Positions 41,136 to 61,540 of a DNA stretch of 64,000 nucleotides are shown here, piece after piece. A model generated the notes under the pieces. That model ran no database searches. It saw nothing but the letters and a program-made list of their open reading frames with translations, and was not told where the DNA came from. Positions within the stretch are counted from its first letter, which is position 1; each line of letters begins with the position of its first letter. This DNA is from Trueperaceae bacterium (GTDB taxonomy: Bacteria > Deinococcota > Deinococci > Deinococcales > Trueperaceae). A program made the translations under genes and the position numbers. The stretch lies in assembly GCA_965213705.1 (NCBI GenBank), contig OZ243913.1, forward strand, positions 448,001 through 512,000. The letters are read 5' to 3'.

Positions 41136-41600
41136 TCACGGATGGTTGTTTGGATTTTCAACCGTCAAATCTTCAGCCTGTGCCGCATTGTTCAGCTCCT
41201 TATCTGCGGAAACTAAAGTCAGCGGCAACAACCCGTATCCAAGTCTTTCACCCTTTGTCTCTAATGCAGCTGCCAACTGGACCGCGTCATAACCGCGTAA
41301 GCTGTAGGTCTCTGCTAGGCGTAGTGCTGTCACAATGACAGATTCGCTTATCGCAATGTGTGTAAAACGGAGCGGAAACTCTCGCCGCAAACGTCGTAAC
41401 GCCTTCGATGTTTGGTCGGCTGAAAGCGTCTTGCCTTTCTGCCTGCGAATCAAAGCCGCACAAACTTCGACTTCCGTTATCCTTGCCGCGTAAAGTCGGT
41501 TTTTCGCCGCTGGGCGTAGCAAATTCAAAACGTATCTGCTGCCGCGTTCCTACGCAAAGCGTTTGACAAAGGCACTGCTTTCAAGAAAATAAGCTGGCAC
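41136..41600 (-). pseudogene. vapC: PIN-domain toxin (VapC) with an in-frame TAG at codon 17
   Basis: GTG at 41600 reads MPAYFLESSAFVKRFA*ERGSRYVLNLL...; TAG at 41550-41552; downstream LRGYDAVQLA and LVSAD PIN motifs are intact. Confidence 0.8.
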
Positions 41601-41881
41601 TAGCGGCGTTCACGAATAATGGTTTCTGACAGTGGCTCGCCTTCGACCTTAATCAGTTCAAACGTGTCGAACTCCGCGTCGGGTTCGCCTCGAGTGGCAA
41701 TGTTACTGGTAACGCCTTTGGATAAAAGGTAACGCTCGAACTCGTCCTCGAGGCGTTCGGCTTCTTCGTCCGGCAGTGCGGCTTCTTTTTCACGCAGGTA
41801 GTTTGCCAACTCATCAGCCACTTGACGCGCGTCGCTCAAGGGCAGTTTTTGAATTTCGTTCAGAACTTCTGTTGGTGTCAT
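41600..41881 (-). CDS. Putative antitoxin
   Basis: 93 aa, acidic, ends GEPLSETIIRERR (VapB-like tail); 1-nt overlap with the PIN gene start. Confidence 0.7.
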   Translation of the reverse strand: MTPTEVLNEIQKLPLSDARQVADELANYLREKEAALPDEEAERLEDEFERYLLSKGVTSNIATRGEPDAEFDTFELIKVEGEPLSETIIRERR

Positions 41882-41909
41882 GAGTCAGCCTATCAAACGG
41901 CAGCTACCT

Positions 41910-44597
41910 TTAGGTGAGCTTTTTCAGAAAAATAGACTCTCTACCCCGCTCCGTTAAGAAGTACAAGTTCTCTCTGGCACGGGTTATTGCCACATAAAAA
42001 AGCCTTTTTTCTTCCTCATAGGCGTCAGCTAAGCTGCGACCAAAAAGTCTATAAAGTTCGTTATCAGGATGAAGAAGTGGGAATTTGTTCTCGGTCACCT
42101 CAAGAATTATGACGACATCAGCCTCTTTACCTTTCATTTTGTGTACTGTCTCTACTCTAATTTTGTCAAAATCAACTTGAAGCCCTTTTTTGACTTCACT
42201 GAGCAAATTTTCCAAGAGCTTGTCCCTAAACTCGGCAAGTGTTACGCCCGAGCCAACGCGTCCTGTTCGGGAAAGGATGTCAAGTGTCGTATCTGGCTTA
42301 GTTTTGAAATGTTCACGGGCAATGTTGAAACAAAGTTTGAGATACTTTGCCTCTGTAGAAAAGTCAATCCTAGCATCCTTCGTTGGACCGCTACCGGAGT
42401 TGTCAGTGTTGAAGCTGAATTTTTTTTCTTCTCCTTTAAGAATCCAAGCGTCGCCATCTTCAATATTCCGAACAATAAATTTACCGGCTGGCTTTGATGG
42501 CAAAGCCCTAGAAGGCGCACCCAATCCTTCCATGAAACGATTGCCCAATTCGACGATTTTTCTTTGGCTTCTAAAATTAGTGCTTAGAAGTGCAATGTCT
42601 GAAGGGGGATAATTGTCGGCAAATTTGTAGAAGTATTTTAGGTCTGACCCAGCAAAGCCGTTAATAGCCTGCCAATCATCGCCAACGGCAACAATTTTCA
42701 GGTCGGGGTTAACATTTCTTACAGACTCAACCAGCTGATAGAAAGCTTTTGAAAAATCTTGAAATTCGTCAATCAGCAGCCACTCGAGTTCTTTGAGATT
42801 GCCGCCCTGATTCTCCTCACCAATCATGCAATCTCCGCGACGCTCATCAACGACGACTTTAGCTTTCAAGAGTAGATCATCAAAATCAATTTGTCCTTCG
42901 GCAATCATCTGTGATTCATAGCGAGAGTAGACATGTTGCGCTACCCACAAAAACGCAGCCTCTCGCTCTTCCGTCGAATGGTAGTCTTCAATTTTCTTAC
43001 GTGCGTCATCTGCTGTCCAACCAAGCTGCTTAGCTTTTTTTATAAAACTTAGAAACATGTCCAAAAGGCGAATTTTGTATTTTCCCTTTGAAATGACAAG
43101 CTTACGGTACAATTCATCAAAGGGTAGCTTCTTACAGGTTACGCCATTTTCTTCCAAACGCGCTTTAAGCTTGTCCTCAAAGTTTTTTCTCCTCTTTTTG
43201 ATATTTTTCTCGTCGTATAAAATATCACGAGGTGAAGTTTCAATTAGGGTATACTCGGGTTTCACGTCACGCCAGTATTCACGTTTCCAGCGCATTTCTT
43301 CAACATATTCTTCGAAGGTTTTGTTCCGCCACGGTGTTGGTTTTGGATCAAACTCATCCACACCCCAATGCTCCAAGACATACTTCTTTTCTGCAACCTT
43401 GAACGTAAAATCAGGATGGTAACCTCTACCTTTACCTTTTGGTAAAAAGTACTGCTCATAAGAATAAGAAATATCGTGCTCGAAAAGGAAGTCCGCAATG
43501 TATTTTTCTGGTTGAGACCTCACTAAATTTCCAAGAAGCGTCGGGTACCTGCGACTGCGTAATATTGCACCAGCATCAACTTCGTTTGCCTGCTCAGAGT
43601 ACAAATGATTGCGTTGTTGTTGATAGCCCTCAGCGCTTTGGTAAGTTGCCAGATTGTCAAACTGATTCGCCGCGGCCCTAAAAAACTCGTACAGTGTTTC
43701 CTTAAATTCAAATGTGTCGCTTTCAAGGTCTCTGATACAGTTTGCTAAGAACAGTTGTTGCCTTTTATTGTTGTCTTCGTCTACCAGCAATTCAAAAGAA
43801 TGCTTTTCTGGTTGAACAATCTTACAAGCTAAACTGTGAAAGGTACGAGCGTTCTTGAACTCTTTATACTTATAGTCTACTGAAATTCTATCAAGTATTT
43901 CCTCTTTGGCTTGCCTATTGAAAGCAAGTATGAGAATGTTGTTGGGGTTAACTCCGTAGCGTTCTATCAAAATGGCAGTTTTGAGAGCTAAAGCCGTAGT
44001 TTTTCCCGAGCCAGCTCGAGCTTTGAGTTGTACGTTTTGAGATATTTTTGCTAGCGCTAATGCTTTTTCATCGTCACTGGCAAAATCTACGTTAAACTTG
44101 CTGAAAAATTTCTTTAGATAATCTGCTTTGAGCTGTTCAAATTTGCCAACTTCAACAAATTCCAAATTGTCAAGGTAAAGCTGGTCTGCCTGAGAAAACT
44201 CACAGGCATCTAGTAACGATTTCACTTGTTCGACGGTGTCCTGCGCTTTTTTGTTTCTATAAACAAACTCTTCTCGCTCTTCTTTGGTTAAAGGTTGATT
44301 GTTTTCGTTCAAGTAGTTAAGCTTCCTAAGCTCGGCAAGTTGATTAGTACGGAGTAACCCGCAGTCTCTAAATACGACATCCGCCTCAGACCAAAGGCCC
44401 TTTTCAAGCAACTCTTTGAGTTTGAAAAATGCTTCGTTTAAAGCATTCTCTAACTGGGAAAGATACATGGTTTTCTCTTCGGCACTCAGCTCTTTTTTTA
44501 GACTTTGAAAGTGTTGCTTTGCTTTATTTATTTCAAGCCTGTCCAGGTGCATTACGATGAATCTGTATGCTACGGTCATTTCAGAAATTCCCCTCAC
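41910..44597 (-). CDS. UvrD/helicase IV-like SF1 helicase with inserted PD-(D/E)XK-like nuclease domain
   Basis: ARAGSGKT, LIDEFQD, VGDDWQAINGFAGS, TNFRS, TVHKMKGKE, EEKRLFYVAITRA; insertion VRSQPE..IADFL..YSYE..PDF..LEHWG; visibly AT-rich. Confidence 0.85.
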   Translation of the reverse strand: MRGISEMTVAYRFIVMHLDRLEINKAKQHFQSLKKELSAEEKTMYLSQLENALNEAFFKLKELLEKGLWSEADVVFRDCGLLRTNQLAELRKLNYLNENNQPLTKEEREEFVYRNKKAQDTVEQVKSLLDACEFSQADQLYLDNLEFVEVGKFEQLKADYLKKFFSKFNVDFASDDEKALALAKISQNVQLKARAGSGKTTALALKTAILIERYGVNPNNILILAFNRQAKEEILDRISVDYKYKEFKNARTFHSLACKIVQPEKHSFELLVDEDNNKRQQLFLANCIRDLESDTFEFKETLYEFFRAAANQFDNLATYQSAEGYQQQRNHLYSEQANEVDAGAILRSRRYPTLLGNLVRSQPEKYIADFLFEHDISYSYEQYFLPKGKGRGYHPDFTFKVAEKKYVLEHWGVDEFDPKPTPWRNKTFEEYVEEMRWKREYWRDVKPEYTLIETSPRDILYDEKNIKKRRKNFEDKLKARLEENGVTCKKLPFDELYRKLVISKGKYKIRLLDMFLSFIKKAKQLGWTADDARKKIEDYHSTEEREAAFLWVAQHVYSRYESQMIAEGQIDFDDLLLKAKVVVDERRGDCMIGEENQGGNLKELEWLLIDEFQDFSKAFYQLVESVRNVNPDLKIVAVGDDWQAINGFAGSDLKYFYKFADNYPPSDIALLSTNFRSQRKIVELGNRFMEGLGAPSRALPSKPAGKFIVRNIEDGDAWILKGEEKKFSFNTDNSGSGPTKDARIDFSTEAKYLKLCFNIAREHFKTKPDTTLDILSRTGRVGSGVTLAEFRDKLLENLLSEVKKGLQVDFDKIRVETVHKMKGKEADVVIILEVTENKFPLLHPDNELYRLFGRSLADAYEEEKRLFYVAITRARENLYFLTERGRESIFLKKLT

Positions 44598-44706
44598 AGT
44601 GAAGACGTTACCTCGAGCCTAAAGTGATAGCTCGAGATACGAAACCCTTCCCGCATGTAAAACTTGTGCGCCCCGAACCGCTGCACGGTCAAGTCGAGAT
44701 GAAGAA
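44594..44706 (-). pseudogene. Duplicated 3' end of the GNAT gene
   Basis: Encodes ILHLDLTVQRFGAHKFYMREGFRISSYHFRLEVT, near-identical in DNA and protein to the C-terminus of the GNAT at 45391-45497. Confidence 0.85.
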
Positions 44707-44720
44707 TCTGAATTGCACAG

Positions 44721-44999
44721 TCAAGCGCTTTTGGGCAGGGCGACAACCTCATCGGGTTCTGCGAGCGCTGTTTCACCGATAGCGTCCCAGTCGATAACGG
44801 CTACCCAAATGTTCTCATCGGGTGAAAACTGGACGCGACCGTCTACCTCTAAGTCTTCGCTGACGAGCGTGAGACACAGCCCTTCTTTTAAGACGATACG
44901 TTGCCGCGCCAAGGCCTGTACCGTGCCGACGCAGTTGAGGCGCAAACGGCCCTTTGCATCGGCGCTGTGAAAGTCGGCGTAAACACGCGGCGCGTTCAT
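44721..44999 (-). CDS. Hypothetical protein, candidate immunity protein/antitoxin
   Basis: 92 aa, acidic C-terminus, 9 nt downstream of the candidate toxin. Confidence 0.6.
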   Translation of the reverse strand: MNAPRVYADFHSADAKGRLRLNCVGTVQALARQRIVLKEGLCLTLVSEDLEVDGRVQFSPDENIWVAVIDWDAIGETALAEPDEVVALPKSA

Positions 45000-45008
45000 G
45001 GACGTAGT

Positions 45009-45335
45009 TTACCATTTCCGCGTCGGATTGACCTGAGTGGGTGTGAGCAGTCGGCTGGCCGCTGTCGGCGTGAGACCTGTCAGGGTGGCGTGATAGGTAC
45101 TTCTACCGGATGTACGAATCACGTCGCCGCCGAGTTCGCGAACACGAGCCACCGTCGTTATACCCAAGCGACCATGAGGAATAGTTTTCGCCAATTCTTC
45201 AACGTTGCCAAGACCACATTCGACGGAAACGCCCGTCACGCCACTCGGATGGGTCGCCGTAGCTCGAGCGATGTCTTCAGGTTGATTCCGCCCGCCCCTG
45301 ACGACAAGTGCTTCGTCAGGAAGCTCACTGTCCAC
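45009..45335 (-). CDS. Hypothetical protein, candidate ART-fold/polymorphic-toxin-like domain
   Basis: LVVRGG...GVSV...TTVARVRELGGDV...HATL pattern that I associate with Rhs C-terminal toxin domains. Confidence 0.55.
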   Translation of the reverse strand: MDSELPDEALVVRGGRNQPEDIARATATHPSGVTGVSVECGLGNVEELAKTIPHGRLGITTVARVRELGGDVIRTSGRSTYHATLTGLTPTAASRLLTPTQVNPTRKW

Positions 45336-45390: not shown

Positions 45391-45822
45391 TCACGGCGTC
45401 ACCTCGAGCCCGAAGTGATAGCTCGAGATATGGAACCCTTCCCGCATGTAAAACTTGTGCGCCCCAAAGCGCTGCACGCCCGAGTCGAGGTGGAGGAGGA
45501 TGCAGTTTTGCTCGAGCGCATACGCTTTCAAAAACTCAATCAAAGCTTCGCCGTGTCCCCGCGAGCGGTGCGCTTCGTCGGTTACGAGGTCGTACACGTA
45601 CAGGTTCTTGCCCCAGGCCAGCGCCTCACCGATGTCGAAACCGGCGACAGCGGCGACTTTGCCGTCTGAGAGAGTGTAAGCAAGGCGGTAGCCGCGGGCG
45701 CGCTGACGCTCGAGCTGCGCCAAAAATTCTTCTCGCTTCAAGTGCGGGCGCAACTGGTGCAGCACCGGGAAGCAAGCGAGCCGCTCTTCGTCCGTGTCGG
45801 CCAAGTAAACTTTAGAAACCAC
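45391..45822 (-). CDS. GNAT acetyltransferase
   Basis: LYVYDLVTDEAHRSRGHG, LHLDSGVQRFGAHKFY; overlaps the iolC stop. Confidence 0.88.
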   Translation of the reverse strand: MVSKVYLADTDEERLACFPVLHQLRPHLKREEFLAQLERQRARGYRLAYTLSDGKVAAVAGFDIGEALAWGKNLYVYDLVTDEAHRSRGHGEALIEFLKAYALEQNCILLHLDSGVQRFGAHKFYMREGFHISSYHFGLEVTP

Positions 45823-46834
45823 CACGAGCCTCCACAAAGTCTAAAACCTCGTCTTCATAGCCCATAAAGTTCGCGCAGCCGTGGCGGGTGACGACGATGG
45901 CACCACAGGCGTTGCCCATGCGGGCGCTTTTGAACCAGTCCCAGCCGTTGAGCCGCCCGTAAATAAAGCCGCTGGCAAAGGCGTCCCCCGCGCCAAGGAC
46001 ATTGTAAATCTCGACCGGGAAGCCGGGGACTTCGGTGACTTCGCCGGTTCTGAGGTGGACCGTTGCGCCCTGCGCGCCGCGCTTCACCACCAGGGCTTCG
46101 GGGCCGTTGGGCACGTTCAAAATAGCCTCAATATTGGCGCTCAAATCTCCTTTAATCTCGGGCGCGCTGATTTGCTGGTGTTTGATGACGATGTCGTCGG
46201 CGCTTTGTACCATGCCTGCGTTGACCTCTTCTTCGGTGCCGAGGGCCACGTCGACCAGGGGTAGCAGAGCGCGCACGGTGACGCCGAAGGCGCGCGGGTC
46301 GTGCCACTGGTCAGCGCGAAAGTCGAGGTCTAAAAAGACGGTTTTGCCCGCGCGCTTAGCTTGCTCGGCGGCAAAAAAGGTGGCGCTGCGGCTCGGCTCG
46401 CGGCTCAGGCCGGTGCCGGAGATTTCCAGGGCTCGAGCCTCCGCAATGGGTGCCGCTAAAACATCATCAATCGTCAGCTCGATGTCTGCGCAGTTGTCGC
46501 GGTAATACACCAGCGGAAAGGTGTCCGGCGGCTCGATGCCGAGGACGACGGCGCTCGAGCGCCGCCCCAACTTGACCGGAATATAGTCGGTTACGACGCC
46601 CTCGTTTTTCAAAAAATGCAGGATGAAGTCGCCGACTTTGTCCCGACCCACAGCCGTGAGGAGCGCGACGCTCAACCCTAAACGCTTCGTGCCGACGGCG
46701 ATGTTCGTGGGACTGCCGCCGACGTAAGCGGCGAAGCTCGTAATCTCTTCGAAAGGTGCGCCCACGTCGTTTGAATAGAGGTCGATGGAACTGCGGCCCA
46801 TCGTGATGAGGTCGAGGGGTTCGGCCATGCTCAC
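45812..46834 (-). CDS. iolC: 5-dehydro-2-deoxygluconokinase
   Basis: MGRSSIDLY, YVGGSPTNIAVG, YYRDNCAD, GAGDAF (PfkB). Confidence 0.92.
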   Translation of the reverse strand: MSMAEPLDLITMGRSSIDLYSNDVGAPFEEITSFAAYVGGSPTNIAVGTKRLGLSVALLTAVGRDKVGDFILHFLKNEGVVTDYIPVKLGRRSSAVVLGIEPPDTFPLVYYRDNCADIELTIDDVLAAPIAEARALEISGTGLSREPSRSATFFAAEQAKRAGKTVFLDLDFRADQWHDPRAFGVTVRALLPLVDVALGTEEEVNAGMVQSADDIVIKHQQISAPEIKGDLSANIEAILNVPNGPEALVVKRGAQGATVHLRTGEVTEVPGFPVEIYNVLGAGDAFASGFIYGRLNGWDWFKSARMGNACGAIVVTRHGCANFMGYEDEVLDFVEARGGF

Positions 46835-46883
46835 TCCTGCTCAAACACCTAAATGTTGTCGGGCGTTGCTTTCAAAAAACGTC

Positions 46884-47132
46884 TCAACGTTCATGCAGCT
46901 CGTCGCGTGTCCAGGTGATTTTGCCGTGAGTACCAAGTTCAAAGCCTTTGTCCATGAGTGCCATAGCTTTGCGGCGGGCTTGCTCATATTCATCAGCCTC
47001 GAGCACGATTTCCTCGAGCTTTTCTTTGAGCAATGCCGAAACCGAAGTGCCCCGCTTCGCCGCGATAATTTTCACCTGCTTCAAAAGCTCCTTGGGAAGA
47101 GACAGGGTAATGTTCTGCTTTTCTGCGTTCAC
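46884..47132 (-). CDS. RHH/CopG-type antitoxin (orphan)
   Basis: QNITLSLP..AAKRGTSVS..; WTRDELHER tail typical of PIN-partner antitoxins. Confidence 0.75.
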   Translation of the reverse strand: MNAEKQNITLSLPKELLKQVKIIAAKRGTSVSALLKEKLEEIVLEADEYEQARRKAMALMDKGFELGTHGKITWTRDELHER

Positions 47133-47225: not shown

Positions 47226-49193
47226 CTACCGCCGAAGGATTGTGTTGTAATCACATTCTGCCTGCGCATATTTTTGAACGGCTTGTTTGAGGTGAGGAAG
47301 GTATAACTCACGGTTCCTCATAAGTTTATCGCGTGTTCCCTCTAATCTGTCGGCACCACCAGCAAGTTCGGAGGCGAGCTTCTGTTTGAGTGTTTGAACT
47401 TCCTGTTCAACGCGCTTTAGGTCTTGTTGCGTGACGGCCAAGGCAGGATTGAAAACAAAGCGACTTTCAACGCGCTTTCTCCACTGCAAAAGTTTGTCGG
47501 TTAGTTTTGGTCCGAATGAAGGCACCCGCTCAACAGCTTTACGGTTGATGTCGGCAGCCGATTCAATACCGAATGACCTTAAGGCGGCAATGCGGGCTGG
47601 ACCAACCCCACTAATATTAGCGTTGTCGATTAAATGATTGTTCAGAAACCGTTTGAATTGCAACTCTTTCGCATTGTCTTTGAGTGCCTGAACTTTCTGG
47701 CCTTTAATTTGATTCAAGTGGTCGTAGTCATACTTTGCCTTATTTAAGCGGTTAAAAGTACCTTCAAAGCTTTCAACTGCACACTCTTTTTCCCACCGCG
47801 ACTGCACCTCATCCCATTTTCTTTTTGCTCCTTCTAAGTTGCTGTTTGCAGTCCGTGTTACTTGTTCTACATCCCTCCTACCTAAAGCTAGGTCAAACCA
47901 AATGACTCCAACCAACCCCCAAAAGATTACAAGTCCCGACAACAAACCGGTGAAGCTCAAAAATAGGAGCAAAACCGTAACCAATACTTTCGTTATCATT
48001 CGGCTTTGACGGCGTCTGTGCGCTTCTAAAACAGGTTTTGAAGTCTGCACCGGAGTAGGCTTGACTGTCGGCAATCCTGGCGGCGGAGATACTTCTGTAA
48101 TCTTACGCCATGCTGCCTCAACATCAATACTGGCCCCGCTAGCGTTAACCTTTATATAACCGACTGTGAAAAATAGGACACCTGGTACAGACTCGAGTTC
48201 GCACCAAGAGCATTTTGGTAAGTGACCGTAGTACAAGTGGTTGGGATTTGCCTTACAAACGACAAGCTGTGATTCTGATTTGGCTAGTGCATCTACCCAC
48301 TGCTTCGGATCAGGACGAGACCAACCTTTGTTTTGGCGATAACCCCCCGCGCCCTCTTTGGAAAAAGCTTGAATAAACAACTGCGCGACCTGGGTTGGCA
48401 CGTCTTTTAACAGCAGAGTATTCGGTGGGGGTTTTATTTGCATCGCCTGTGCGGTACTACCATAAACAAACTTAAATGCGGTTATGGCTTTCTCAATCGG
48501 AACATATTCGGGGCCAAGCGGTGTACCTGAGAATGGATGCCGCCCCATGAACAAAAGGTGAAAGATGAGAACCGCAAGCCCAAAGGCATCGTGATCTTTT
48601 GTGCGCTCCTCATTAGTTAACGTTCTGCCTTGTAACTCGGGCGGAGTGAATGTAGGCACACCTACGGGGCAATAGTGATAAACACCGCCGACATTTACCT
48701 GAAAGCTGTCACAGTCAATAAGTTTGACCATTCCCTTTTCAGACACCATCAAATTGCCCTGGTTGACATCGCCAATTATGTGACCATGCTCGTGAACAGT
48801 AGCAAAAGCCCTAGAAACGTTTGCGGCTACACGAATAAGAAACGCCCAGGTTGCATCAGGGAACTCGTTTATCCGGCTTTTGGGGCCGTAGAGAGTATGT
48901 ATATCCTTGAAGCCACTGGCACGCGACATGATAAATCCCTGAACCGGGCCATCTCGGGTTAAGCGGAGGGTATCCTTCGGCCAAGCGGCGAGTTTGCTTA
49001 AAGCATCAGTTTGACCATCAACCATGTAACGCAATTTCTGCGCCTTGTCGGTAGGTGGGGGAGAATGGTAAAGCTTTGCTACGAACTCAGACGCTCCACT
49101 TACTTCAAAAACCGCGCCCTCGCCGCCTCTACCGAGTTCTGAGCCAAGACTAACGGGATGACCAAGGTGACTAAAAACTTGTTTTGGCGTCAT
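47226..49193 (-). CDS. YegI-like Ser/Thr kinase with TM segments and C-terminal HhH (TerY-P triad)
   Basis: LGRGGEGAVF, VAKLY, IGDVNQGN, LIDCDS, FTPPELQG, GRHPF; ISGVGPARIAALRSFG; AT-rich. Confidence 0.88.
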   Translation of the reverse strand: MTPKQVFSHLGHPVSLGSELGRGGEGAVFEVSGASEFVAKLYHSPPPTDKAQKLRYMVDGQTDALSKLAAWPKDTLRLTRDGPVQGFIMSRASGFKDIHTLYGPKSRINEFPDATWAFLIRVAANVSRAFATVHEHGHIIGDVNQGNLMVSEKGMVKLIDCDSFQVNVGGVYHYCPVGVPTFTPPELQGRTLTNEERTKDHDAFGLAVLIFHLLFMGRHPFSGTPLGPEYVPIEKAITAFKFVYGSTAQAMQIKPPPNTLLLKDVPTQVAQLFIQAFSKEGAGGYRQNKGWSRPDPKQWVDALAKSESQLVVCKANPNHLYYGHLPKCSWCELESVPGVLFFTVGYIKVNASGASIDVEAAWRKITEVSPPPGLPTVKPTPVQTSKPVLEAHRRRQSRMITKVLVTVLLLFLSFTGLLSGLVIFWGLVGVIWFDLALGRRDVEQVTRTANSNLEGAKRKWDEVQSRWEKECAVESFEGTFNRLNKAKYDYDHLNQIKGQKVQALKDNAKELQFKRFLNNHLIDNANISGVGPARIAALRSFGIESAADINRKAVERVPSFGPKLTDKLLQWRKRVESRFVFNPALAVTQQDLKRVEQEVQTLKQKLASELAGGADRLEGTRDKLMRNRELYLPHLKQAVQKYAQAECDYNTILRR

Positions 49194-49986
49194 CCTTGCT
49201 CTCAAAAATCTGGCGTGAAGCTAGCACTAATGTTTTATCGTCATCAGTGCGTTCATTAACCCTATCTGAGTTGAGAAAGTCTGCCAGCAGCAACGTTAGC
49301 TCAACGGAATAACCAGCTTCGGATTTGCCAACAGCGCTTAGCATCGGCTTGAAAAAACGTTGGTGGGGCTCTTTAATATCCATTTGCAGAGCAAGGCTTT
49401 GAATTCCATCGGTAAACATAGTCAGTTCCGTAATCCTCTGTTCCAAGAAGAGATACTCGAGACGAAATCTAGCTTCACTTCCGGTAACGAAGTTGGTTGA
49501 ACTGGCATACTCGCCGCTTTGAGGCCAGAAAGCACATTTATAGACATCGGCTTCCTTGTCCGTGGCATAAACTATCGCCCCATCACCAATTTGAACAAAC
49601 ACTGCTTGACTTTCACTGACAACGGTAGCCAACAGTGTGCAGGCAAATTCACGTAACTCCACACCGCGATCAAGGGCACGCTCACGCAGTTCGTTTTGTA
49701 AGTGTACTACCCAATCTTCGACCAAAGTCCGACTAATATCACTTATTGAGTCACCACATTCAACAAGCTTTACAACCTCGTCTACCCAAAGCTCGCAGGC
49801 AAGAGTTGACCCGTCTGCGGAATGTAGAGCGCTACCCGCACCATCAGCGACAACAGCAACAAGTAACTCTTCGTTCTCGGAATCTTTTAATACAGCACAC
49901 TTACTCGCGTCCTGGCAGTGTGTGCGATTGAGGACGTGAGACGTACCTATAACAGTTGCGAAAGCATAACGCCAGCGCGGCGTCAT
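49171..49986 (-). CDS. PP2C-like phosphatase (YegK-like; TerY-P triad)
   Basis: [30 protein letters not shown]. Confidence 0.9.
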
Positions 49987-50663: not shown

Positions 50664-50781
50664 GCAAGCCTCCTAGAACAACTTTTAGATTTTATCGAGC
50701 ATCCATTGCAAGATTTACAACCAATAGTCACGGATTTGTCGTCTACGCTTTCCTATAACGCCCTTTTTACCACACCTCTTA

Positions 50782-50844
50782 ACGTTTTGGCTCGAGCCAA
50801 CAGCACCCGGTTTTCGTGCCGAATGACGGCTCGAGCCAAAACGT
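50782..50844. repeat. Perfect 17-bp inverted repeat (hairpin) between mmsA and the TerY-P island
   Basis: ACGTTTTGGCTCGAGCC (50782-50798) / GGCTCGAGCCAAAACGT (50828-50844). Confidence 0.85.
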
Positions 50845-50856
50845 GAAACCGAGGCT

Positions 50857-52381: not shown

Positions 52382-53608
52382 CTAATTGAACCAGACGGCG
52401 AAGCCGATAAACTGACCGCCGAACACGTCCCAGATGCGCTGGAGGGTTTCGGCAGAGACGACCTCGCCCGTTTCGACGTAGGGCGCGGCGGCACCGCCTT
52501 GAAGCCAGAGTACCAGGTCGAAGTCTCGTGGCTCTAAAAAGGCACGCGGCAAGTCGATACCCTGTCCTTCCGGCAAACGCCAGTGCGGGACGAGCTTTTC
52601 GCCGCGCCACAGGGCGCGCGTCTCTTCGACGAAGAGCAGCCAGGCATCGACGATGTCTTGCGTCACCTGAACGGGCAGGACGGAGTCTTGAGAAGGATTC
52701 GGAATCCACTCGCGGTCGTTGTCGGTTTCCGCCAGGATAAAGTCCCACATCAGTCCGGCTTGCTCGGTCACGGCTTGAGCGTGTTCTAAAGCTTTTTCCA
52801 GGCGTTCGGGCTCGAGCAGCGGCACGCGCAAAGCCAGGTGGACGAGGGCGATTTGGTCGACCAGTTGGCCGTCGTCCATGTCGAGTAAGTTGCCCTGCTG
52901 GTACAATAGGTCGGTGGCAACCTCGGCCCGCGGGAAAAACAGTTGCGCCGTGTAAGAAAAAAGCGTCTGGCTGTCGTGCGCCAAAATAATTTCGACGAGG
53001 GCCATGAGCAGGTGGCTGTAACCGCGCATCCAGTGGGCGTCGCCGTGGTCGAGCCGCAGTTCCAGGGGCGCGGCGTCCTCGACGAAACGCTGGTTCAACA
53101 CGGCCAGCAGCGTCGTCAGCGACTCGCCCGCGTCGCGTGTCAGGTTGCCGTCGTAGTCGAGATAGGCTTCGCCCAAATCGAGGATGACTGCAGGGTCGCT
53201 CGTGGAATTACCGTCACCAAGACCTGCCAGCGTGTTTTCAGCCCGCCCGAGCTGACCGTTCACCGTCTCGAGTTCAGCGCGGAAGTCTGCATAGGAAATA
53301 CTCTCGGGTTGCGGGTTCGTAGGCACGGGCAAGCGCAAAAAGGGGATGCCCATCTCTTGGCCCACGTCGGACTCGAGCCCGTAGCGGTACCAGGCCTGCC
53401 CGAGCATTTCCGCCGCGCGCAGAAACTGGGTCGTACCCAGCGCAAAACGCAGGTCGGCGTTATCGGGGTCGGTGTCCAGGCGCTCGAGGAAGGTTCGCTC
53501 TTGCTCGAGTAGCGGCGTCTCGAAGTTGAGGGTCTGCTCCTGCGCCCATCCCAACCCGCTGAGCAAACAAAAAAGGCAAATCCAGAGGCGATGCTGTCTC
53601 AAATTCAT
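52382..53608 (-). CDS. Secreted hypothetical protein
   Basis: Signal peptide ending [31 protein letters not shown] overlap with iolE. Confidence 0.7.
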
Positions 53609-54507
53609 AGTCCGATACGTCCTAAATAGGCCCGGTTGCGCTCGGCGTTCTCCGCGGGCGAGCCCATGCCGGGGAGAACGTCTTGTTCGACGACTATCCA
53701 GCCATCATACCCGACCTCGTGCAGGGTTTCTAAAACCTTGGGAAAGTCCACCGCGCCCGTGCCGAGTTCGCAGAACACGCCCGCGCCTATCATCTCCTTG
53801 TAGTTCCAGCCGTTCTCTTTCGCCTGCTCTACGACTGCCGGATTGAAGTCTTTGAAGTGCATCAGTTGGATGCGTTCGCCGTACTTCTTGACGCCTTCAA
53901 CCGGGTCGCCGCCGCCCAGCATGTAGTGCCCGGTATCGAAGACGATGCCCACTTTTTCGGGGTCGGTGCGGCGCAAAAACTCGTCGATTTCGGCGGGCGT
54001 TTCGACAAAGGTCGAGCCGTGTGGGTGTAGGGCGGTACGCAGGCCGGTCTCAGCTCTGACAGCGTTCGCCACACGGTGGATGCCTTTGACGTATGTTTGC
54101 CAGCCCGCCTCGTCTAAACCGTGCTCCACTTGGATGCGCCCAGTGTTGTAAAAGCGCGCCTGCACCGTCGAATGGTCGTCACCGATGTTGACGGTGCAGT
54201 GCGAACCGCCGACCTCGGCTAGAAGTTTTGCGACCCTCACGGCGCGCTCCACGCCCTCTTCGTGATACGCCTCGTCGTACAGCCGCACCGTCACCCACGA
54301 GCCGACGGGCTCGAGCCCCCGCTTATGAAGTTCCTCACGCAGTTTGTCGGGGTCGCTCGGCATGTAGCCCAAGTCGCCGAGTTCGGTGCCGACGAAACCC
54401 GCCGCAGCGAGTTCGTCCAGCATCTGCGCGTAAGGGACGCGCCCGCCCGCCGTGTTCTCGATGGTTCCCCAGGAGCAGGGGGCGTTGGCGAGTTTGTAGT
54501 TGGTCAA
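53605..54507 (-). CDS. iolE: Inosose dehydratase-like TIM barrel
   Basis: ANAPCSWG, GTELG, HPH, FDTGH, HFKD, WIVVEQD; TTG start overlaps the vapC TGA. Confidence 0.8.
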   Translation of the reverse strand: MTNYKLANAPCSWGTIENTAGGRVPYAQMLDELAAAGFVGTELGDLGYMPSDPDKLREELHKRGLEPVGSWVTVRLYDEAYHEEGVERAVRVAKLLAEVGGSHCTVNIGDDHSTVQARFYNTGRIQVEHGLDEAGWQTYVKGIHRVANAVRAETGLRTALHPHGSTFVETPAEIDEFLRRTDPEKVGIVFDTGHYMLGGGDPVEGVKKYGERIQLMHFKDFNPAVVEQAKENGWNYKEMIGAGVFCELGTGAVDFPKVLETLHEVGYDGWIVVEQDVLPGMGSPAENAERNRAYLGRIGL

Positions 54508-54914
54508 AGCGGCTGGCTCCAATCTTGAAGCGCTAATTCTTCGATACGCCCGAAATGTTTTAGGTTGCGCGTCGCCAGTTGCAGGCTGTTGGCGATAGCC
54601 GTTCCAGCAATGAGGAGGTCGATATCGTCCAGGGGCTTTCCCTGTCCGCGGAGTTGTGCGTAAAGTCTAGCTGAGATTGTCGCACTCGTTTTTGTAACAG
54701 GTAAAATAGTGCTACCTCCGGCCAGTGCTTCGAACGTACCTAACCGCTTTTTGGCGTCTCGGTGCCTAAGCCCGCTTAGAATCTCGTAGTAAGTGATAAG
54801 GCTGAAACTCAGCGTCCGGTGGGTTGCTAAGTAAGATTCGGTATTAGCAACGACGGTCGGTTCGCCTTTCATGAAAAGTGAGAGGATATCGGTATCAAGC
54901 AGTGTCGGCAGCAT
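54504..54914 (-). CDS. vapC: PIN-domain toxin (VapC)
   Basis: LLDTDILS, ITYYE, DLLIAGTA, TRNLKHF. Confidence 0.9.
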   Translation of the reverse strand: MLPTLLDTDILSLFMKGEPTVVANTESYLATHRTLSFSLITYYEILSGLRHRDAKKRLGTFEALAGGSTILPVTKTSATISARLYAQLRGQGKPLDDIDLLIAGTAIANSLQLATRNLKHFGRIEELALQDWSQPL

Positions 54915-55143
54915 GACGTTTACGTCTCGAGGTATCCCGCCGCCGCGTTTGCATCTCGTTGAGAAAGTCCTCGAACTCAGCTTCCGGCATGTCTTTCCAG
55001 CACCCGGCGAAGCTCATGATGTCGGGTTTCGAACGGTTTGCCTCGAGGCCGAGCCGAAAATGGTGAATGAGGTTGAAAATATCTTCCAACTGCTCGTCCG
55101 GTAAACGGTTGACTTCCTCTACAACCTTTTCGCGTATCGTCAT
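54895..55143 (-). CDS. Putative antitoxin
   Basis: 82 aa, overlaps the vapC start; FAGCWKDM motif; AGGAAGG RBS. Confidence 0.75.
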   Translation of the reverse strand: MTIREKVVEEVNRLPDEQLEDIFNLIHHFRLGLEANRSKPDIMSFAGCWKDMPEAEFEDFLNEMQTRRRDTSRRKRHAADTA

Positions 55144-55162
55144 GTTGCACCTTCCTGATAAA

Positions 55163-55216: not shown

Positions 55217-57097
55217 CTACTCGAAAATCACCTGCTTCTTCTTGGCCTCATCGTACTGCTTCCGCGCCTCCCGCACGCTTTGCTGCCCACTCACCTCCGC
55301 CGGGGGACAGTCCCACCAACCGCCAAAATCGTAACTACCGACACGCTTTTCGGGGTCTACTTCGACCACGACGACGTTCACGCCTTTTCGAGAGCGCGCG
55401 GCCTCGAGCGCCTTTTTATAACTATCCTCCGTATTCGTATAAACCGCGTGCGCGCCCATTGCCTCAGCGTGCTTGGCGTAGTCCACGCGGACGATGTCGC
55501 CGTCGAGCAAACCCTCGTCGTTGCGGTGGCGCAGCTCGAGGCCGAAGTGCGGCGTCCCCGTGCTCCGCTGCAAGCCGTGAATGCTCTGGTAGCCGTGGTT
55601 GTCCACCACGATAATCGTGAGGTCCAAACCTTCAGCGACCGCCGTGACAATTTCCGAATTCATCATGAGGTACGAGCCGTCGCCGATAAAAACGACCACC
55701 TCACGCTCGGGCTCAGCGAGCTTGACGCCTATGCCTGCCGGGATTTCGTAGCCCATGCAGGAGTAGCCGTACTCCAAGTGATAACTGTCCGGCTTCGTGG
55801 GCCGCCAGATTTTGGGGATGTCTCCGGGGATGCTCCCGGCGGCGTTAATGACCACCGCGTCGCCGCCGACGATGTCGTTGGTCATGCCTAGCACCTCACT
55901 CTGGCCCAAGTTGTCCGGTTCTTCGATTTTTTTGATGTCGTCAACCAAAGCATCCCACTCGGCTTTCCAACCCGAGGCCCGTTCGCGGTAGGCAGGACGA
56001 GTCCCCTCGTAACCGGCTTGCGAAAGAGCCTCTTGAAGTGCCGTCAAGCCCCGCCGCGCGTCCGCTACCAGCGGCAGGGCGAACAGCTTGTAGGCGTCCA
56101 GCGGCGTGACGTTGAGGCCGATGAATTTTGCTTGGCCCGAAAAGGCTGTTCTCGAGGCCGTCGTAAAGTCGGCCAGCCGCGTGCCGACGGCGAGAATCAC
56201 GTCGGCCTCGCTCGCTACCCGGCTCGCTGCCGAGCCCGCGAGCGAGCCCACGTTGCCCATGCTCATCGCGTGGTCCCAGCGCAGCGCGCCCTTGCCCGCT
56301 TGCGTCTCGGTCACAGGAATGCCGAAACGCTCGGCGAAAACGGCCAGTTCGTCCGTCGCCAGGCTGTACTTCACGCCGCCGCCTGCGATAATCATGGGTC
56401 GTTCGGCGTTTCTAATCAGCTCGACCGCGTCCGCGATGATTTCGGGCTCAGGGACGGGGCGGCGGATGCGCCAGACGCGCTTTTCGAACATGCCTACCGA
56501 CCACTCGAAAGCCTCGGTCTGCACGTCCTCCGGCAGCGAAATCGTCACCGCGCCCGTCTCAGCCGGGTCGGTGAGGACGCGCATCGCTTCGGGCAGCGCG
56601 TGTAGGAGTTGTTCGGGTCGTGAGATGCGCGTAAAAAAGCGGCTGACCGGCCGGAAAATGTCGTTGATGGACACGTCGTGCTCAGTCGGGTGCTCGAGCT
56701 GTTGCAGCACCGGGTCGGGAATGCGGTTGGCGAAATAGTCCGAGGGGAGCAGCAATACCGGAATCCGGTTGACCGTCGCCAGCGCCGCGCCTGTGACCAT
56801 GTTGCTGCTGCCCGGCCCGACCGAGGCGGTGCAGGCAAACGTCGATAAACGGTTCAGGTGCCGCGCGTAGGCGACCGCCGTGTGAACCTGCGCCTGTTCG
56901 TTTTGCGGACGGTAAAAAGGCAGGCCGCAGTCCAGGCCGTATTCCTGCATTGCTTGCCCCACGCCGGGGACGTTGCCGTGGCCTTGGATGCCCCACATCC
57001 CGGCGATAAGTCGGTGTTCGGTGCCGTCGAGTTCGCTGTACTGCTGTGACAGGAATTTGACGAGGGCTTGGGCGACGGTTAGGCGTTGGGTTTTCAA
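55217..57097 (-). CDS. iolD: 3D-(3,5/4)-trihydroxycyclohexane-1,2-dione acylhydrolase
   Basis: LTVAQALVKFL, GHGNV, PDPVLQQLE, HLEYGYSCMGYEI, GDGSYLM (TPP). Confidence 0.95.
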   Translation of the reverse strand: MKTQRLTVAQALVKFLSQQYSELDGTEHRLIAGMWGIQGHGNVPGVGQAMQEYGLDCGLPFYRPQNEQAQVHTAVAYARHLNRLSTFACTASVGPGSSNMVTGAALATVNRIPVLLLPSDYFANRIPDPVLQQLEHPTEHDVSINDIFRPVSRFFTRISRPEQLLHALPEAMRVLTDPAETGAVTISLPEDVQTEAFEWSVGMFEKRVWRIRRPVPEPEIIADAVELIRNAERPMIIAGGGVKYSLATDELAVFAERFGIPVTETQAGKGALRWDHAMSMGNVGSLAGSAASRVASEADVILAVGTRLADFTTASRTAFSGQAKFIGLNVTPLDAYKLFALPLVADARRGLTALQEALSQAGYEGTRPAYRERASGWKAEWDALVDDIKKIEEPDNLGQSEVLGMTNDIVGGDAVVINAAGSIPGDIPKIWRPTKPDSYHLEYGYSCMGYEIPAGIGVKLAEPEREVVVFIGDGSYLMMNSEIVTAVAEGLDLTIIVVDNHGYQSIHGLQRSTGTPHFGLELRHRNDEGLLDGDIVRVDYAKHAEAMGAHAVYTNTEDSYKKALEAARSRKGVNVVVVEVDPEKRVGSYDFGGWWDCPPAEVSGQQSVREARKQYDEAKKKQVIFE

Positions 57098-57165: not shown

Positions 57166-57579
57166 CTATACAAGATTCGGATAAGGATTTGTGACACTCG
57201 ATTGATGCCAAACGGACTTCTCTGCTCGCGACAATTCTCTATAATACTTCCTACTAAGGCGGTCAATCGCTTCCTCCGTCAAAACTTCATCCCCAGAGTA
57301 AATCCTCAGACCGCAATACAGAAAAAGATATAAGGCAGCTAGCTCTTCAAGATACGCGAATTCTGACTTAACTTCGAAGACACTTCCTGAGTCGCTGAGC
57401 AAAGTAATAGTGACTGGCTGATTCTCACTTTCACGGACATGAAGTTCAGTCCAAGAACGACTGTATACTGGATTAGAGTCACCATCGGTGTCTATGTTCG
57501 CATCAATCCCATACAACAAATCCACAAACACTCTGAAATCGGGACGTTCTTTATTTACGAGAACTCTGTGCATCAGCAT
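57166..57579 (-). CDS. Hypothetical protein (AT-rich)
   Basis: 137-aa ORF in a visibly lower-GC segment between iolG and iolD. Confidence 0.65.
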   Translation of the reverse strand: MLMHRVLVNKERPDFRVFVDLLYGIDANIDTDGDSNPVYSRSWTELHVRESENQPVTITLLSDSGSVFEVKSEFAYLEELAALYLFLYCGLRIYSGDEVLTEEAIDRLSRKYYRELSRAEKSVWHQSSVTNPYPNLV

Positions 57580-57607: not shown

Positions 57608-58609
57608 TCATCTCCCGAACTCCTGTACTTTCACAATCTCTCCCGTCTCGAGCGACCGCTGCGCCGCCAACGCCAGGCGGGAACTTTTCAGCGCGTCCTC
57701 CACGTTCGGCGTGACCGGCTCGCCTGCATGAACGTTTTTGGCAAAGGCAACCACCTCGTTGGCGTAGGCTTCGAAAAAGCGCTCCTCGAAGTGCTGTGGG
57801 TAGTCGTGGCTGACGCCGTGCTCACTCCAGACCTCGAGGTTGAGTATTTGACGCTTTTCTAAGTGGTACTTGCCCTTCTCGCCCAAAATGTCGGTGGCGA
57901 TTTCGTAGCCGTAAGCGGTGTTGAGCGCGTTTTCGACGGTGCCGACCGCGCCGTTTTCAAATTTCAGAGTAGCGACGGCTAAGTTGAATAGGCCGAACTC
58001 TTTGAGGCGGTCGTCCCGTACCGCCGTGCCGACGGCGTAGACTTCTGCGACCTCACCGCAGAAGTAGCGCGCCGTGTCGAAGTCGTGGATGCCCATGTCC
58101 ACCAGGATACCGCCCGACGTTTTGAGAAACTCGACGCTCGTTTGAACCGGGTCACGGCTGACGGCGCGAAAGTTTTCGATGCGGCCCAAGTCGCCGTTGT
58201 CCAAGCGCCGTTTGACCTCCAGATAGGCCGGGTCGTAGCGGCGTTGAAAACCAACTTGGCAGGGAACGCCGGTTTTTTGGATGACTTGAACAACCTCGTG
58301 AGCCGCCCTGAGAGTATGTGCGAGCGGCTTCTCGACGAAAATAGCCTTGCCCGCCTCGGCTGCTCTACAAATAAGCTCGGCGTGCGTCGGTGTGGGCGTG
58401 GTGATGAACACGGCGTCTACGTTTTTGTTCTCGAGCACTTGGTCCAAGGCGCTCACCTTCGCCCCCAGCGTCTCGGCGACCTCGGCAGCACTCTCTGGAA
58501 CGAAGTCCACAACATCCGTAATTTGGACTTCGGTCAGAGTTCTCAGCACAGCGGCGTGTGTCCGCGCCATGCGTCCGGCACCGATGAGAGCGATGTAGAG
58601 AGGAGTCAT
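57608..58609 (-). CDS. iolG: Inositol 2-dehydrogenase
   Basis: IGAGRM, FVEKP, GFQRRYDP, SRDP, GGILVDMGIHDFD, YGYE; operon context. Confidence 0.85.
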   Translation of the reverse strand: MTPLYIALIGAGRMARTHAAVLRTLTEVQITDVVDFVPESAAEVAETLGAKVSALDQVLENKNVDAVFITTPTPTHAELICRAAEAGKAIFVEKPLAHTLRAAHEVVQVIQKTGVPCQVGFQRRYDPAYLEVKRRLDNGDLGRIENFRAVSRDPVQTSVEFLKTSGGILVDMGIHDFDTARYFCGEVAEVYAVGTAVRDDRLKEFGLFNLAVATLKFENGAVGTVENALNTAYGYEIATDILGEKGKYHLEKRQILNLEVWSEHGVSHDYPQHFEERFFEAYANEVVAFAKNVHAGEPVTPNVEDALKSSRLALAAQRSLETGEIVKVQEFGR

Positions 58610-58630: not shown

Positions 58631-59434
58631 TCAGAGCTTTTCTCTCTGGTCACTGTGGGCGAATTCGGCGAGTTCGGCCTCGAGCGCGTTAAGTTCGTCG
58701 GTGCCCGCCATCATGCCGAGCACGTCCTCACGGCTGACTTCTTCTTTGGCAAACGTCCCGTAGCTCTGCCCGCGCTTGAGAATCGTGAAGCGGTCGGCGA
58801 CCGGGTAGGCGTGGTGGACGTTGTGAGTGATGAAGATGACGCCCAAGCCCTTTGCTTTGGCCTGCGCGATGTATTTGAGGACCACCCCGGCCTGCTTGAC
58901 CCCGAGGGCGGCGGTGGGCTCGTCCAAGATAAGCACTTTCGCGCCGAAGTAGACGGCCCTCGAGATTGCCACACACTGCCGCTCGCCGCCCGACATCGTG
59001 CCGACCGCCTGGTTGGGGTCGCGGATGTCGATGCCCATGTTCGCCATCGCCGCGACGACGGTTTCGGCGGCGAACGTCTGGTCGAAGGTTTGGAACGGCC
59101 CCCAACCCTTCGTCGGCTCCCGGCCTAAAAAGAAGTTGCGCGTCACGCTCATCAGGGGTTGGACGGAGAGGTGCTGATGCACCGTGGCGATGCCGTGGTT
59201 TTGCGCGGCCCTGGGCGAGTCGAACACCACCGGCCGCCCCTGCATCAGAATTTGCCCCGAGGTGGGTTTGTGGACGCCCGAAATCGTCTTGATGAGGGTG
59301 GACTTGCCCGCGCCGTTGTCACCGAGGAGGCACATCACCTCGCCGGGTTGCACCGTCATCGACACACCGTTCAGCGCGATGACCGAGCCGAAGGTCTTGA
59401 CCAAGTCCTGCAGTTCGATGAGTGGGACGCTCAT
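58631..59434 (-). CDS. Monosaccharide/inositol ABC ATP-binding protein
   Basis: [25 protein letters not shown]. Confidence 0.92.
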
Positions 59435-60471
59435 TTCGCCTCCGTCACGCGCTTGCGGATAAATTTGTTGAACACCACCGCGATGAGGAGCATCACGCCC
59501 AAAAACACCTTGAACCAGTCGGTGTTGACGCCGGTAAAGAAAATTCCCTGCTGCACCATCCCGAAAATCAGCGCGCCGAACACCGCGCCGACGACCGAGC
59601 CGTAACCGCCTGTGAGCAAACAGCCGCCGATGACCGCCGCGATTATCGCTTCAAATTCTTTGAGCAACCCGCGGTTCACGTCTGCCGAGCCTAAGTCCAC
59701 GACTTGCAGCGCGGCGAACAGCGTCGCCGTGACCGCCGTGCCCATAAACAGGATGATGCGCACCCGGTTCACCGGCACCCCGGTGTTGCGCGCCGCCTCC
59801 GCGTCGCCGCCGACGCCGAAAATCCAGTTCCCGAACCTCGTGCGTTGCAGCACCCAGGTCGCAAGTACAGCGAGGCCGAGCCACCAGAAAATAGACACCG
59901 GCAATCCAAACAAGTCACCACGAAAAATAGGGGCCAGCCAATCGTTTTCAGCAGCCTCTTTCAGCCCCGACACCTGCGTGCGCCCGGTGACGAGCCGGGT
60001 AAAGCCGATGGCCGCGCCACGCAGAATATATAAAAAAGCCAGCGTGACGATAAACGAGGGCAAGCGCGTGCGGTTGACGATAAAACCATTGATATACCCG
60101 ACGAGAAGCGCGAATGCAAAGGACGCCAAAATAGCAAGCCAAAAAGGCCAGCCGTAAACAGCCACCGGAATCGCCATGACCAGGCCCGCCGCCCCAATCA
60201 TCGAGCCGATGGACAGGTCGAACTCGCCGCCTATCATCAGCAACGCCGCGCCGATGGCGAGGATGCCGAGTTGGGCGGAGACTTCCAACCAGCTAGCAAT
60301 GCCGCGAAAACTCAGGAACCCCTTGTCGCCCGCGACGACGGCGAAGAAAATAAACACGAGCACCGCCCCCGACACCGCGCCGAGTTCGGGCCGCGCCAGC
60401 AAGCGACGCCACAGGCCCAGTTGGCGGACGCGCTCGTCGCCGCTACCTACCTGTGTCGCCATGTCCGTCAC
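59431..60471 (-). CDS. Monosaccharide/inositol ABC permease (RbsC-like)
   Basis: [31 protein letters not shown]. Confidence 0.92.
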
Positions 60472-60500
60472 CTCTCAAGCTCAGCTTATCCAACGCTCTC

Positions 60501-60588
60501 AGTGGGGGAGTTGGGGAGAGAGAGGGAGTAGGGGAGTCAAGTCAAAGGCTTTTACTCCCCTACTCCCTACCCCGATACTCCCCTACTT
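60501..60588. repeat. GGGAGTAG-type repeat hairpin after the inositol SBP gene
   Basis: AGGGAGTAGGGGAGT...ACTCCCCTACTCCCT inverted repeat with extra copies. Confidence 0.75.
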
Positions 60589-60595
60589 TATTTCG

Positions 60596-61540
60596 TTAGC
60601 GAATCCCCTTGCTGCTCAAGTCCACGACCTGCGCGGCGTTCTCCGGCGTGACGAAGCCGGGGCCGGTGAGGATGACGCTCGAGCCCGGCAACAGCCCGTT
60701 TTGAATATACTGCGTCATCAGCACGACGCCCAAATAGCCTTGCAGGTACTGCTGCTGGTCGATGGCGAATGCGGCATTGCCGTCGGCGAGGGTTTGCAGA
60801 ATCGTGGGTGAGAGGTCGAAAAAGCCGAGCTGGACTTGGCCCAAGCTGCCCATTTCCTCGAGTGCGGCGATGGTGGGCTCGCCCCCGACCGGGCCGACGG
60901 CCAGCACGCCCTGAACGTCCGCGTTGGCGCTGAAAGCGGCTGAGACGGCGTTGCGGATTTCGGTGGGGTCGGTCGATACGGCGAGTACGTCTACGTTCGC
61001 GCCCTCACCCAAGCCGTCCTGAAAGCCCTGGCAGCGCAAGTCGAGCGCCACGTTGCCGACCTCGTGGTTGACGCAAATCGCATTTTGGACGCCCTGCTCG
61101 GCCATGCGCTCGCCCGCGCCCAAGCCCGCTTCGTACTCGGTCTGGCCGATGTGGCGCAGGATGCCCAAGTCCTGAAACACGTCGCTGCCCGAGTTGATGG
61201 AAAAGACCGGGATGCCCGCGTCTGTCGCCGCGCGAATCGAGTCGCCGAGCGCGTCGGCGTCGGGTACCGAGACGACGAGGCCGTCGGGCTGCGAGGCGAC
61301 CGCCGCGTCGATGAGCTGCGCCATGCGCGGCATGTCGAAGGTGTCGGGCGCGCGGTACTCGACGTTCACGCCCATGTCCTGCGCGGCCTGGTCGACGCCG
61401 TTTTTGACGACCGACCAAAACGGGTCGGCGGCCCCCCCGTGGACGACCACGACGATGCGGATGTCGCCCCTGGCCGGCGCGTCCTGGCCCCAAACCGTGC
61501 CAAAGGCGAACAGGCTCAGCAGTAGCAAAAGCTTTTTCAT
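60596..61540 (-). CDS. Inositol-type ABC substrate-binding protein
   Basis: Start [33 protein letters not shown]. Confidence 0.9.

Follow-up and report, generated by a model that had tools for sequence, protein, structure and literature searches.

The window analysed here is a stretch of 64,000 nucleotides (nt) from a Trueperaceae bacterium (assembly GCA_965213705.1, contig OZ243913.1, positions 448,001 to 512,000), whose minus strand carries an inositol catabolic (iol) operon with extra genes lodged between its enzyme genes. From the promoter, the substrate-binding protein (SBP), permease and ATPase genes of a transporter are followed by iolG, a small open reading frame (orf137), iolD, an antitoxin-vapC pair, iolE, sec408, mmsA, a vWA-PP2C-kinase triad with an RHH antitoxin and a toxin remnant, and iolC. 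Behind iolC lie a GNAT gene, tox108 and imm92, a second copy of the GNAT tail, a helicase gene, and an antitoxin with a vapC pseudogene, the whole being convergent on glgX. The interleaving was confirmed to be real and not the product of a chimeric assembly. This order, together with the coordinates, gene identities and promoter, had been described in a first-pass annotation made from the sequence alone, and was recovered by gene and family scans. The features are as follows.

61667..61695, minus strand: sigma70-type promoter, TTGACA-17-TATAGT (read 61695-61667), 11/12 consensus matches
58631..61540, minus strand: sugar ATP-binding cassette (ABC) transporter without interruption; SBP 60596-61540, permease 59431-60471, ATPase 58631-59434
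57608..58609, minus strand: iolG, inositol 2-dehydrogenase (TIGR04380, 358 against a cut-off of 355)
57166..57579, minus strand: inserted gene orf137, GC content 0.43, no family
55217..57097, minus strand: iolD (TIGR04377, 857 against 715)
54504..55143, minus strand: putative antitoxin (54895-55143) and VapC/PIN toxin (54504-54914)
53605..54507, minus strand: iolE (best match TIGR04379)
52382..53608, minus strand: sec408, predicted secreted protein
50857..52350, minus strand: mmsA/iolA (TIGR01722, 579 against 448.5)
50779..50847, minus strand: long hairpin 3′ of mmsA, 20-bp arms, z -5.1
47226..50663, minus strand: TerY-P-like triad; vWA 49983-50663, PP2C 49171-49986, Ser/Thr kinase 47226-49205
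46841..47132, minus strand: RHH antitoxin (46884-47132) and 17-codon PIN-toxin remnant (46841-46894)
45812..46828, minus strand: iolC (TIGR04382, 388 against 300)
45391..45822, minus strand: GNAT acetyltransferase, whose last ~100-110 nt form repeat copy 1
45009..45335, minus strand: tox108, predicted ADP-ribosyltransferase (ART)-like fold, best Z 6.2 (KptA)
44721..44999, minus strand: imm92, no family; putative tox108 partner, from adjacency alone
44594..44709, minus strand: displaced GNAT 3′ tail, repeat copy 2, 88% identical over 99 nt
41910..44579, minus strand: UvrD/HelIV-like superfamily 1 helicase by profile matches, GC content 0.41
41136..41881, minus strand: putative antitoxin (41600-41881) and vapC pseudogene (41136-41600), in-frame TAG at codon 17

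The NCBIfam cut-offs were exceeded by iolG, iolD, iolC and the MMSDH gene (mmsA/iolA). For iolE, TIGR04379 was the best match, with a score of 210 against a cut-off of 290, and syntenic homologues of 47-69% identity were found in other genera. Neither iolB nor iolJ is present within the operon, and only partial aldolase matches were found elsewhere in the genome. An iolG2-iolB-like pair was located ~80 kb away from the operon (G000:407326-409249, G000 being the genome under study), its iolB-like gene (40%) at 407356-408162. Extra genes, all co-oriented with the operon, occupy 4/4 enzyme junctions (iolG/iolD/iolE/mmsA/iolC) and 0/3 transporter junctions; the initial claim that every junction is interrupted thus held for the enzymes, whereas SBP, permease, ATPase and iolG follow one another directly. 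As first reported, no integrase or transposase family was matched among the 33 open reading frames between 37.7 and 64 kb of the window. The previously noted overlap of the vapC TGA with the iolE TTG was located at TTGA, 54507-54504, the iolE start and its GGAG site lying inside the vapC 3′ end; iolE and sec408 overlap by ATGA (53608-53605). GC content at third codon positions (GC3) was 0.72-0.86 in core genes and 0.41-0.63 in the inserted ones, with the exception of sec408 (0.76).

The inserted genes had collectively been called defence cargo, a label that, judged by domain and family content, fits only the TerY-P-like triad and the toxin-antitoxin (TA) pairs. The triad has the domain order of TerY-P; PADLOC gave no match for its vWA or PP2C and weak, generic matches for its kinase; a predicted membrane segment and a weak HhH match follow the kinase domain in the same protein. 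No defence assignment was obtained for orf137, sec408 or the helicase in family and PADLOC scans, and a PADLOC assignment of the helicase was rejected, its matches being generic UvrD ones. Helicase relatives are HelIV-like with at most 55% identity, and its nuclease-like insert is a motif judged by eye that had no Pfam match. The GTG first taken as its start does overlap the TGA of the GNAT tail, as described, but the likelier start is the ATG at 44579 behind GAGGGG (the database entry has 889 amino acids), and the tail itself is no gene but a relic. The fold predicted for tox108 (pLDDT 92.5) had KptA as its best structural match (Z 6.2, rmsd 3.2, 84 aligned), and most of the 50 rows of structure matches were ART-fold entries, with no Foldseek match at E<=0.001; on this model, tox108 appears to resemble ART-fold proteins weakly but consistently. 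Its family is widespread (1,319 database relatives; 6/201 genomes of the order), and no delivery domain was evident in tox108. Database relatives of orf137 and sec408 were hypothetical clusters only. Codon use in sec408 is host-like, and the gene was found in 7/61 genomes, 3 of them without an iolD match and others carrying it away from iolD. The RHH antitoxin, initially described as an orphan, is trailed by a 17-codon remnant of a PIN toxin; the toxin is intact in the sister genome (G001), and the cassette retains its own promoter-like upstream stretch.

Variation of the inserted genes among relatives

Public contigs with 0 mismatches bridge the joints from the helicase to the GNAT tail, from iolC through the TerY-P-like triad to the end of mmsA, from mmsA to sec408, from iolE through the TA pair to iolD, and from iolD through orf137 to iolG, and read depth was continuous in 30/30 bins across the stretch. 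The bridging sequencing runs may derive from the very sample behind the assembly; the stretch was not found in sequencing runs X3 and X4. That the region is an assembly chimera, a possibility raised at the outset, could be argued from the coexistence of several related genomes in the matching sample, but given the bridging contigs, the continuous depth and four cargo modules that G001 shares in synteny, its probability is negligible.

In G001 the iol backbone is kept with ~90% nucleotide identity, and antitoxin-vapC, sec408, tox108-imm92 and the GNAT tail are common to both genomes. Three slots differ. The iolG/iolD slot holds orf137 in G000, a DUF2513 gene in G001 and an AlbA_2 gene in a further relative, G004; at mmsA/iolC, G001 lacks TerY-P and carries an intact RHH-PIN pair, the RHH being 59% identical to the G000 allele; and at the distal end a methyltransferase, a MazF-like pair and a VapBC stand where G000 has the helicase and the vapC pseudogene, the latter being absent from G001 by blastn. 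Homology between the two genomes breaks off at the upstream gene's stop codon and picks up again at the ribosome-binding site of the gene downstream. Alignment of relatives' iol loci, the comparison proposed in the first-pass annotation, thus returned a conserved backbone with varying junction cargo. The GNAT gene of G001 (L032:1201-1515) lacks 132 nt internally and in frame, a pattern that short-repeat-mediated loss would explain. In G004, iolG is split by a frameshift (L034:3985-5153) directly upstream of the low-GC AlbA_2 gene. Two further TA pairs (MazE-like and PIN; Phd and PIN) lie at 31048-32396 of the window, 9 kb outside the locus, and neither PIN gene is covered by an aligned block of G001.

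Minor variants were also detected in the matching sample. At mmsA/iolC, four alternative joints were found (46816-50859, 46829-50827, 47121-50828 and 47188-50856), at iolD/iolE the joint 54496-55217 replaces antitoxin-vapC by 537 other nt, and the low-depth joint 41067-45399 skips everything between GNAT and glgX. Among 61 genomes, 38 had an iolD match. Thirty iolD loci were read 1.5 kb to each side and scored for gene-sized foreign cargo, which was present between iol genes in six (G000, G001, G004, G017, G024 and G032) and absent from 23, G027 being unscorable; an unpublished genome, G033, is counted in the tallies of relatives only, and no claim is based on it. The combination of a conserved backbone with differing cargo, in relatives and variants alike, indicates that the cargo is exchangeable.

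Duplicated gene ends and genome-wide turnover

In both G000 and G001, the tox108-imm92 module (a 692-nt insert) is enclosed by a 99-nt, 88% identical direct repeat of the GNAT tail. The site is filled in G001, an empty state being hinted at only by the joint 41067-45399. Likewise, the glgX tail of G001 is duplicated around that genome's own VapBC. A self-BLAST of G000 revealed 226 local repeats, 20 rows of which (18 loci) duplicate a gene end; 13/18 of these loci, that of the GNAT tail among them, bracket small TA-like modules without a recombinase, and further cases appeared in other repeat scans. The flanking repeats are ~33-200 nt long and 75-100% identical. Matches to TA families (ParE, PIN, DUF433/DUF5615, HicAB) were obtained for 7/8 modules scanned, the TA labels of the others being assigned by eye. 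Flanking repeats were found at 8/57 PIN loci, compared with 3/300 host-like control genes, two of them TA genes themselves (p=3e-5); when only unique repeats at host gene ends were counted, the figures were 2/57 and 3/300 (p=0.18).

The state of these sites in G001 varies. The insertion at G000:2032080 corresponds to an empty single-copy site, the TA modules at 294854 and 81302 are absent from G001, that at 583716 is located elsewhere, those at 1029758, 1793736 and 3164940 are common to both genomes, and that at 1459532 is partly so. Duplicated-end TA insertions numbered five in 1.64 Mb of G001, and none was found in sampled stretches of G024 and G004 (~0.44 Mb each). A HicAB and HTH module at G000:1978850-1979886 (L193) lies between 100%-identical 92-nt copies of a gene 5′ end with its upstream region and is a very recent insertion; a related HicAB pair is present in G001 at a junction where G000 carries another pair. 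Sixteen inserts showed no common end motif and no inverted repeat; 15/16 measure 0.6-1.2 kb, and one duplicates a tRNA-like 3′ end.

Several candidate signals were discarded. Repeats resembling attC or att sites were found neither at the junctions nor among the 16 inserts, and relic duplications at the four enzyme junctions were unconvincing in all 22 alignments (lowest p=0.017). CTCGAG was rejected as a recombination signal, its 7 copies in 16 repeats (2.9 expected) being a weak, post hoc excess; GCTCGAGC, the same word, is the most over-represented hexamer of the genome at 2.1 per kb, and many other palindromes are strongly avoided. Array-like stacks of TA genes with several short mutual repeats between them occur at G000:683100-686900 and 3620200-3624200, and a regular, CRISPR-like repeat array with a ~71-nt period at G000:4137600-4140000.

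The junction comparison covered 1.64 Mb of G001 (~4.4 Mb). Cargo differed between G000 and G001 at 106/623 co-directional junctions (17%; 10 ambiguous), 40/130 convergent junctions (3 ambiguous) and 21/119 divergent junctions (13 ambiguous). Within the iol operon it differed at 2/12 junctions (entered as 2/13 in the Fisher test of operon against background turnover; the junction listing has 12). With three internal low-GC islands, the iol directon has the top rank among 1,538, the background being 82/1,908 junctions; under random placement, however, some directon with at least three such islands arose in 45% of 5,000 trials (P=0.45). Tight junctions were interrupted in G000 at 6/56 relative to G024 and 1/72 relative to G004. 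The iol operon thus stands at the extreme of a process that operates across the genome, and exceeds chance modestly at most. The first-pass proposal that iol genes act as recombination anchors within a cassette-like hotspot stands in that the backbone is kept, cargo varies without a recombinase and breakpoints fall at gene ends; the same turnover at 17% of co-directional junctions indicates that the anchors are gene ends generally and not iol genes in particular, and three islands lie within chance. Cargo orientation genome-wide was the same as that of the neighbours in 86 cases, opposite in 45 and mixed in 16. PIN matches numbered 57 in G000, the most of 61 genomes, with at least 50 in G001 and at least 41 in G004 (best 60 candidates scored).

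Mechanism, alternatives and known systems

A conserved backbone, variable cargo, breakpoints at gene ends, repeat-flanked modules, empty and swapped sites, and decay were all observed directly. We consider it probable that this is an inositol operon of the ordinary kind, its junctions filled with foreign, recombinase-free cargo. TA and other small genes are scattered across the whole genome, likely through recombination with the ends of neighbouring genes as anchors, and the operon would be the most interleaved case. An incoming gene end with new cargo would be captured by homology on one side and an illegitimate joint on the other, leaving a duplicated gene tail such as that of GNAT. Double crossovers through the conserved flanking genes may then swap or remove cargo among related strains and species. 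Only insertions in the same orientation that leave stop codons and ribosome-binding sites intact would survive, with addictive TA pairs persisting and later decaying, and transcription that reached the cargo from the iol promoter would be a by-product. ComEC and DprA are both encoded in G000, as they are in most control genomes.

A number of observations weigh against this account. With no repeat relic at the four enzyme junctions, the capture step is seen only at the GNAT and glgX ends. ComEC also occurs in 10/14 control genomes, which weakens an inference of competence. The variant joints rest on contig sides of 28-109 nt, and the intervening letters are mostly unknown; the gene calls behind the genome-wide controls came from our own script, which recovered the window genes and is otherwise unvalidated. 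If sec408 is counted, 4/7 junctions are filled, against a background of 7/128 (5.5%) or 6/56 (10.7%), giving a per-operon probability of 0.0003-0.0035 and ~0.01-0.15 such operons expected per genome (44 long directons), and hence some local excess. The four-fold-site distance between G000 and G001 in the iol block falls in the 11th-14th percentile (two genomes), and a synonymous divergence that is only mildly low does not demonstrate raised recombination at the anchors. DUF2513 genes, moreover, recur in iol operons.

This recurrence speaks for regarding the iol operon as a true family-wide exchange hotspot. Such an operon would be accessory and often transferred, recombination would be anchored on its conserved genes across genus boundaries as well, and it would gather more cargo than other operons do. 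DUF2513 is rare (17/128 family genomes), yet six of its 18 matches lie inside iol operons (L170, L171, L172, L174, L175 and L177), spread over three genera and three different junctions; at one slot, the alleles of four congeners share only 38-46% identity, while the flanking iolG2 is 74-77% identical to that of G024. The first rank among directons, the unrelated cargo at the iol junctions of six genomes and the four mmsA/iolC states in one sample point the same way. Turnover relative to G001 nevertheless equals the background, the permutation gave P=0.45, 23/30 iolD loci were free of gene-sized foreign cargo and cargo tends towards PIN-rich genomes, while the DUF2513 tree lacked resolution (5 changes, shuffled mean 5.3, p-AU 0.36) and reads were compared at the iol operon only; we therefore find such a hotspot unlikely. 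A bolder form of our own account, in which TA modules of this lineage are recombinase-free cassettes landing on metabolic gene ends and the iol operon is a community-level exchange platform, its cargo (e.g. DUF2513) swapped even across genera under a nutrient-responsive promoter, is conceivable, although we hold it doubtful.

The modules could instead be selfish: a break made by their own products, or a recombinase acting in trans, would let them insert with true duplication of the target and without donor homology. Such insertion would explain the repeat pair that is 100% identical over 92 nt where the sister flank is 86% identical, the narrow insert sizes and the duplicated tRNA-like 3′ end; the restriction-modification precedent invokes DNA breakage (PMC2853133, as far as its accessible text goes), and IS-like transposase open reading frames were seen by eye elsewhere in the genome. 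The inserts, however, share no end motif or inverted repeat, they belong to unrelated families, mostly of predicted RNases and not of DNases, the repeats vary from 33 to 198 nt, and a same-species donor would also yield identical copies, which leaves this mechanism rather improbable. It seems very unlikely that, as the first-pass annotation suggested for defence genes, transcripts reading through from the iol promoter tie defence or toxin expression to the use of inositol, and that the cargo is kept for this reason. All cargo is co-oriented, vapC/iolE and iolE/sec408 overlap tightly, the iolD-antitoxin gap in G001 is only 45 nt and no intrinsic terminator was called at the junctions; yet co-orientation prevails throughout the genome, the cargo has mixed functions and differs between relatives, it is decaying (the toxin remnant, the vapC stop, the G001 GNAT deletion), and a strong hairpin separates mmsA from the TerY-P-like triad. 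That hairpin is a possible terminator or processing site and, with the promoter-like stretch of the RHH cassette, points to partly independent transcription, as far as can be read from the sequence. Intergenic hairpins of short tandem units also occur at 55160-55215 and 60480-60600, the latter G-rich; the arms of the former are each 14 nt longer in G000 than in G001.

The spread of chromosomal TA pairs without integrases or transposases is poorly explained, and no fewer than 13 footprints, which differ in age and whose sites in the sister genome are empty, filled or swapped, make homology-anchored capture directly testable. For such work the iol operon is a convenient marker locus and not a new system. 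Among sources accessible in part (subscription papers and supplements lying outside the scope), nothing describing this pattern was found under TA target duplication, Trueperaceae TA, DUF2513, core-gene TA insertion or the CTCGAG palindrome, and the part seen of PMC2654758 gives no insertion mechanism.

The accessible part of Furuta et al. (2010; PMC2853133) describes restriction-modification genes that insert with long target duplication and without an integrase or transposase. As here, the direct repeats exceed 30 bp and often span a start or stop codon; an empty site in a relative is described as well, a state seen here for G000:2032080; those cases were mostly from competent species, and one lay inside an operon-like structure. 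By the same features, the present inserts have repeats of more than 30 bp, are shorter than 20 kb and lack integrases and transposases, but carry TA pairs and an ART-like toxin in place of restriction-modification genes, at 13 or more loci of a single genome. PMC2853133 does not contain the word ‘toxin’, and a mechanism known for restriction genes would be extended to TA modules. In hotspots free of mobile genetic elements (MGEs), as described in the text available of Oliveira (2017; PMC5635113), variable cargo likewise sits between core genes without mobility genes and undergoes allelic replacement. According to the same text, integration of new genes inside operons is rare, and newcomers cluster at ~1% of sites. 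In the present genome small cargo reaches ~17% of junctions and consecutive junctions are filled inside one operon, so that operon interiors can tolerate gene-by-gene insertion, contrary to the usual view.

Displacement of effector-immunity modules of the type VI secretion system (T6SS), which proceeds by homology-facilitated illegitimate recombination in the account given in the portion seen of Kirchberger et al. (2017; PMC5361080), similarly uses an upstream-homology anchor and pushes the old 3′ end downstream, whereas the anchors here are metabolic gene ends and not secretion-system genes. The TerY-P triad, for which stand-alone antiphage activity is reported in the available part of PMC10542128, has the same three domains in the same order as the candidate described here, in which the kinase runs on further and no OB-fold was found, none having been searched for specifically. 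Integron arrays also hold co-oriented, low-GC, exchangeable small genes including TA pairs, but no integrase and no repeated attC-like site is present here, and the slots are separated by core enzyme genes. Taken together, the footprint fits insertion with long target duplication apart from the type of cargo, the swapping fits MGE-free hotspots, and the displaced tail fits the T6SS model.

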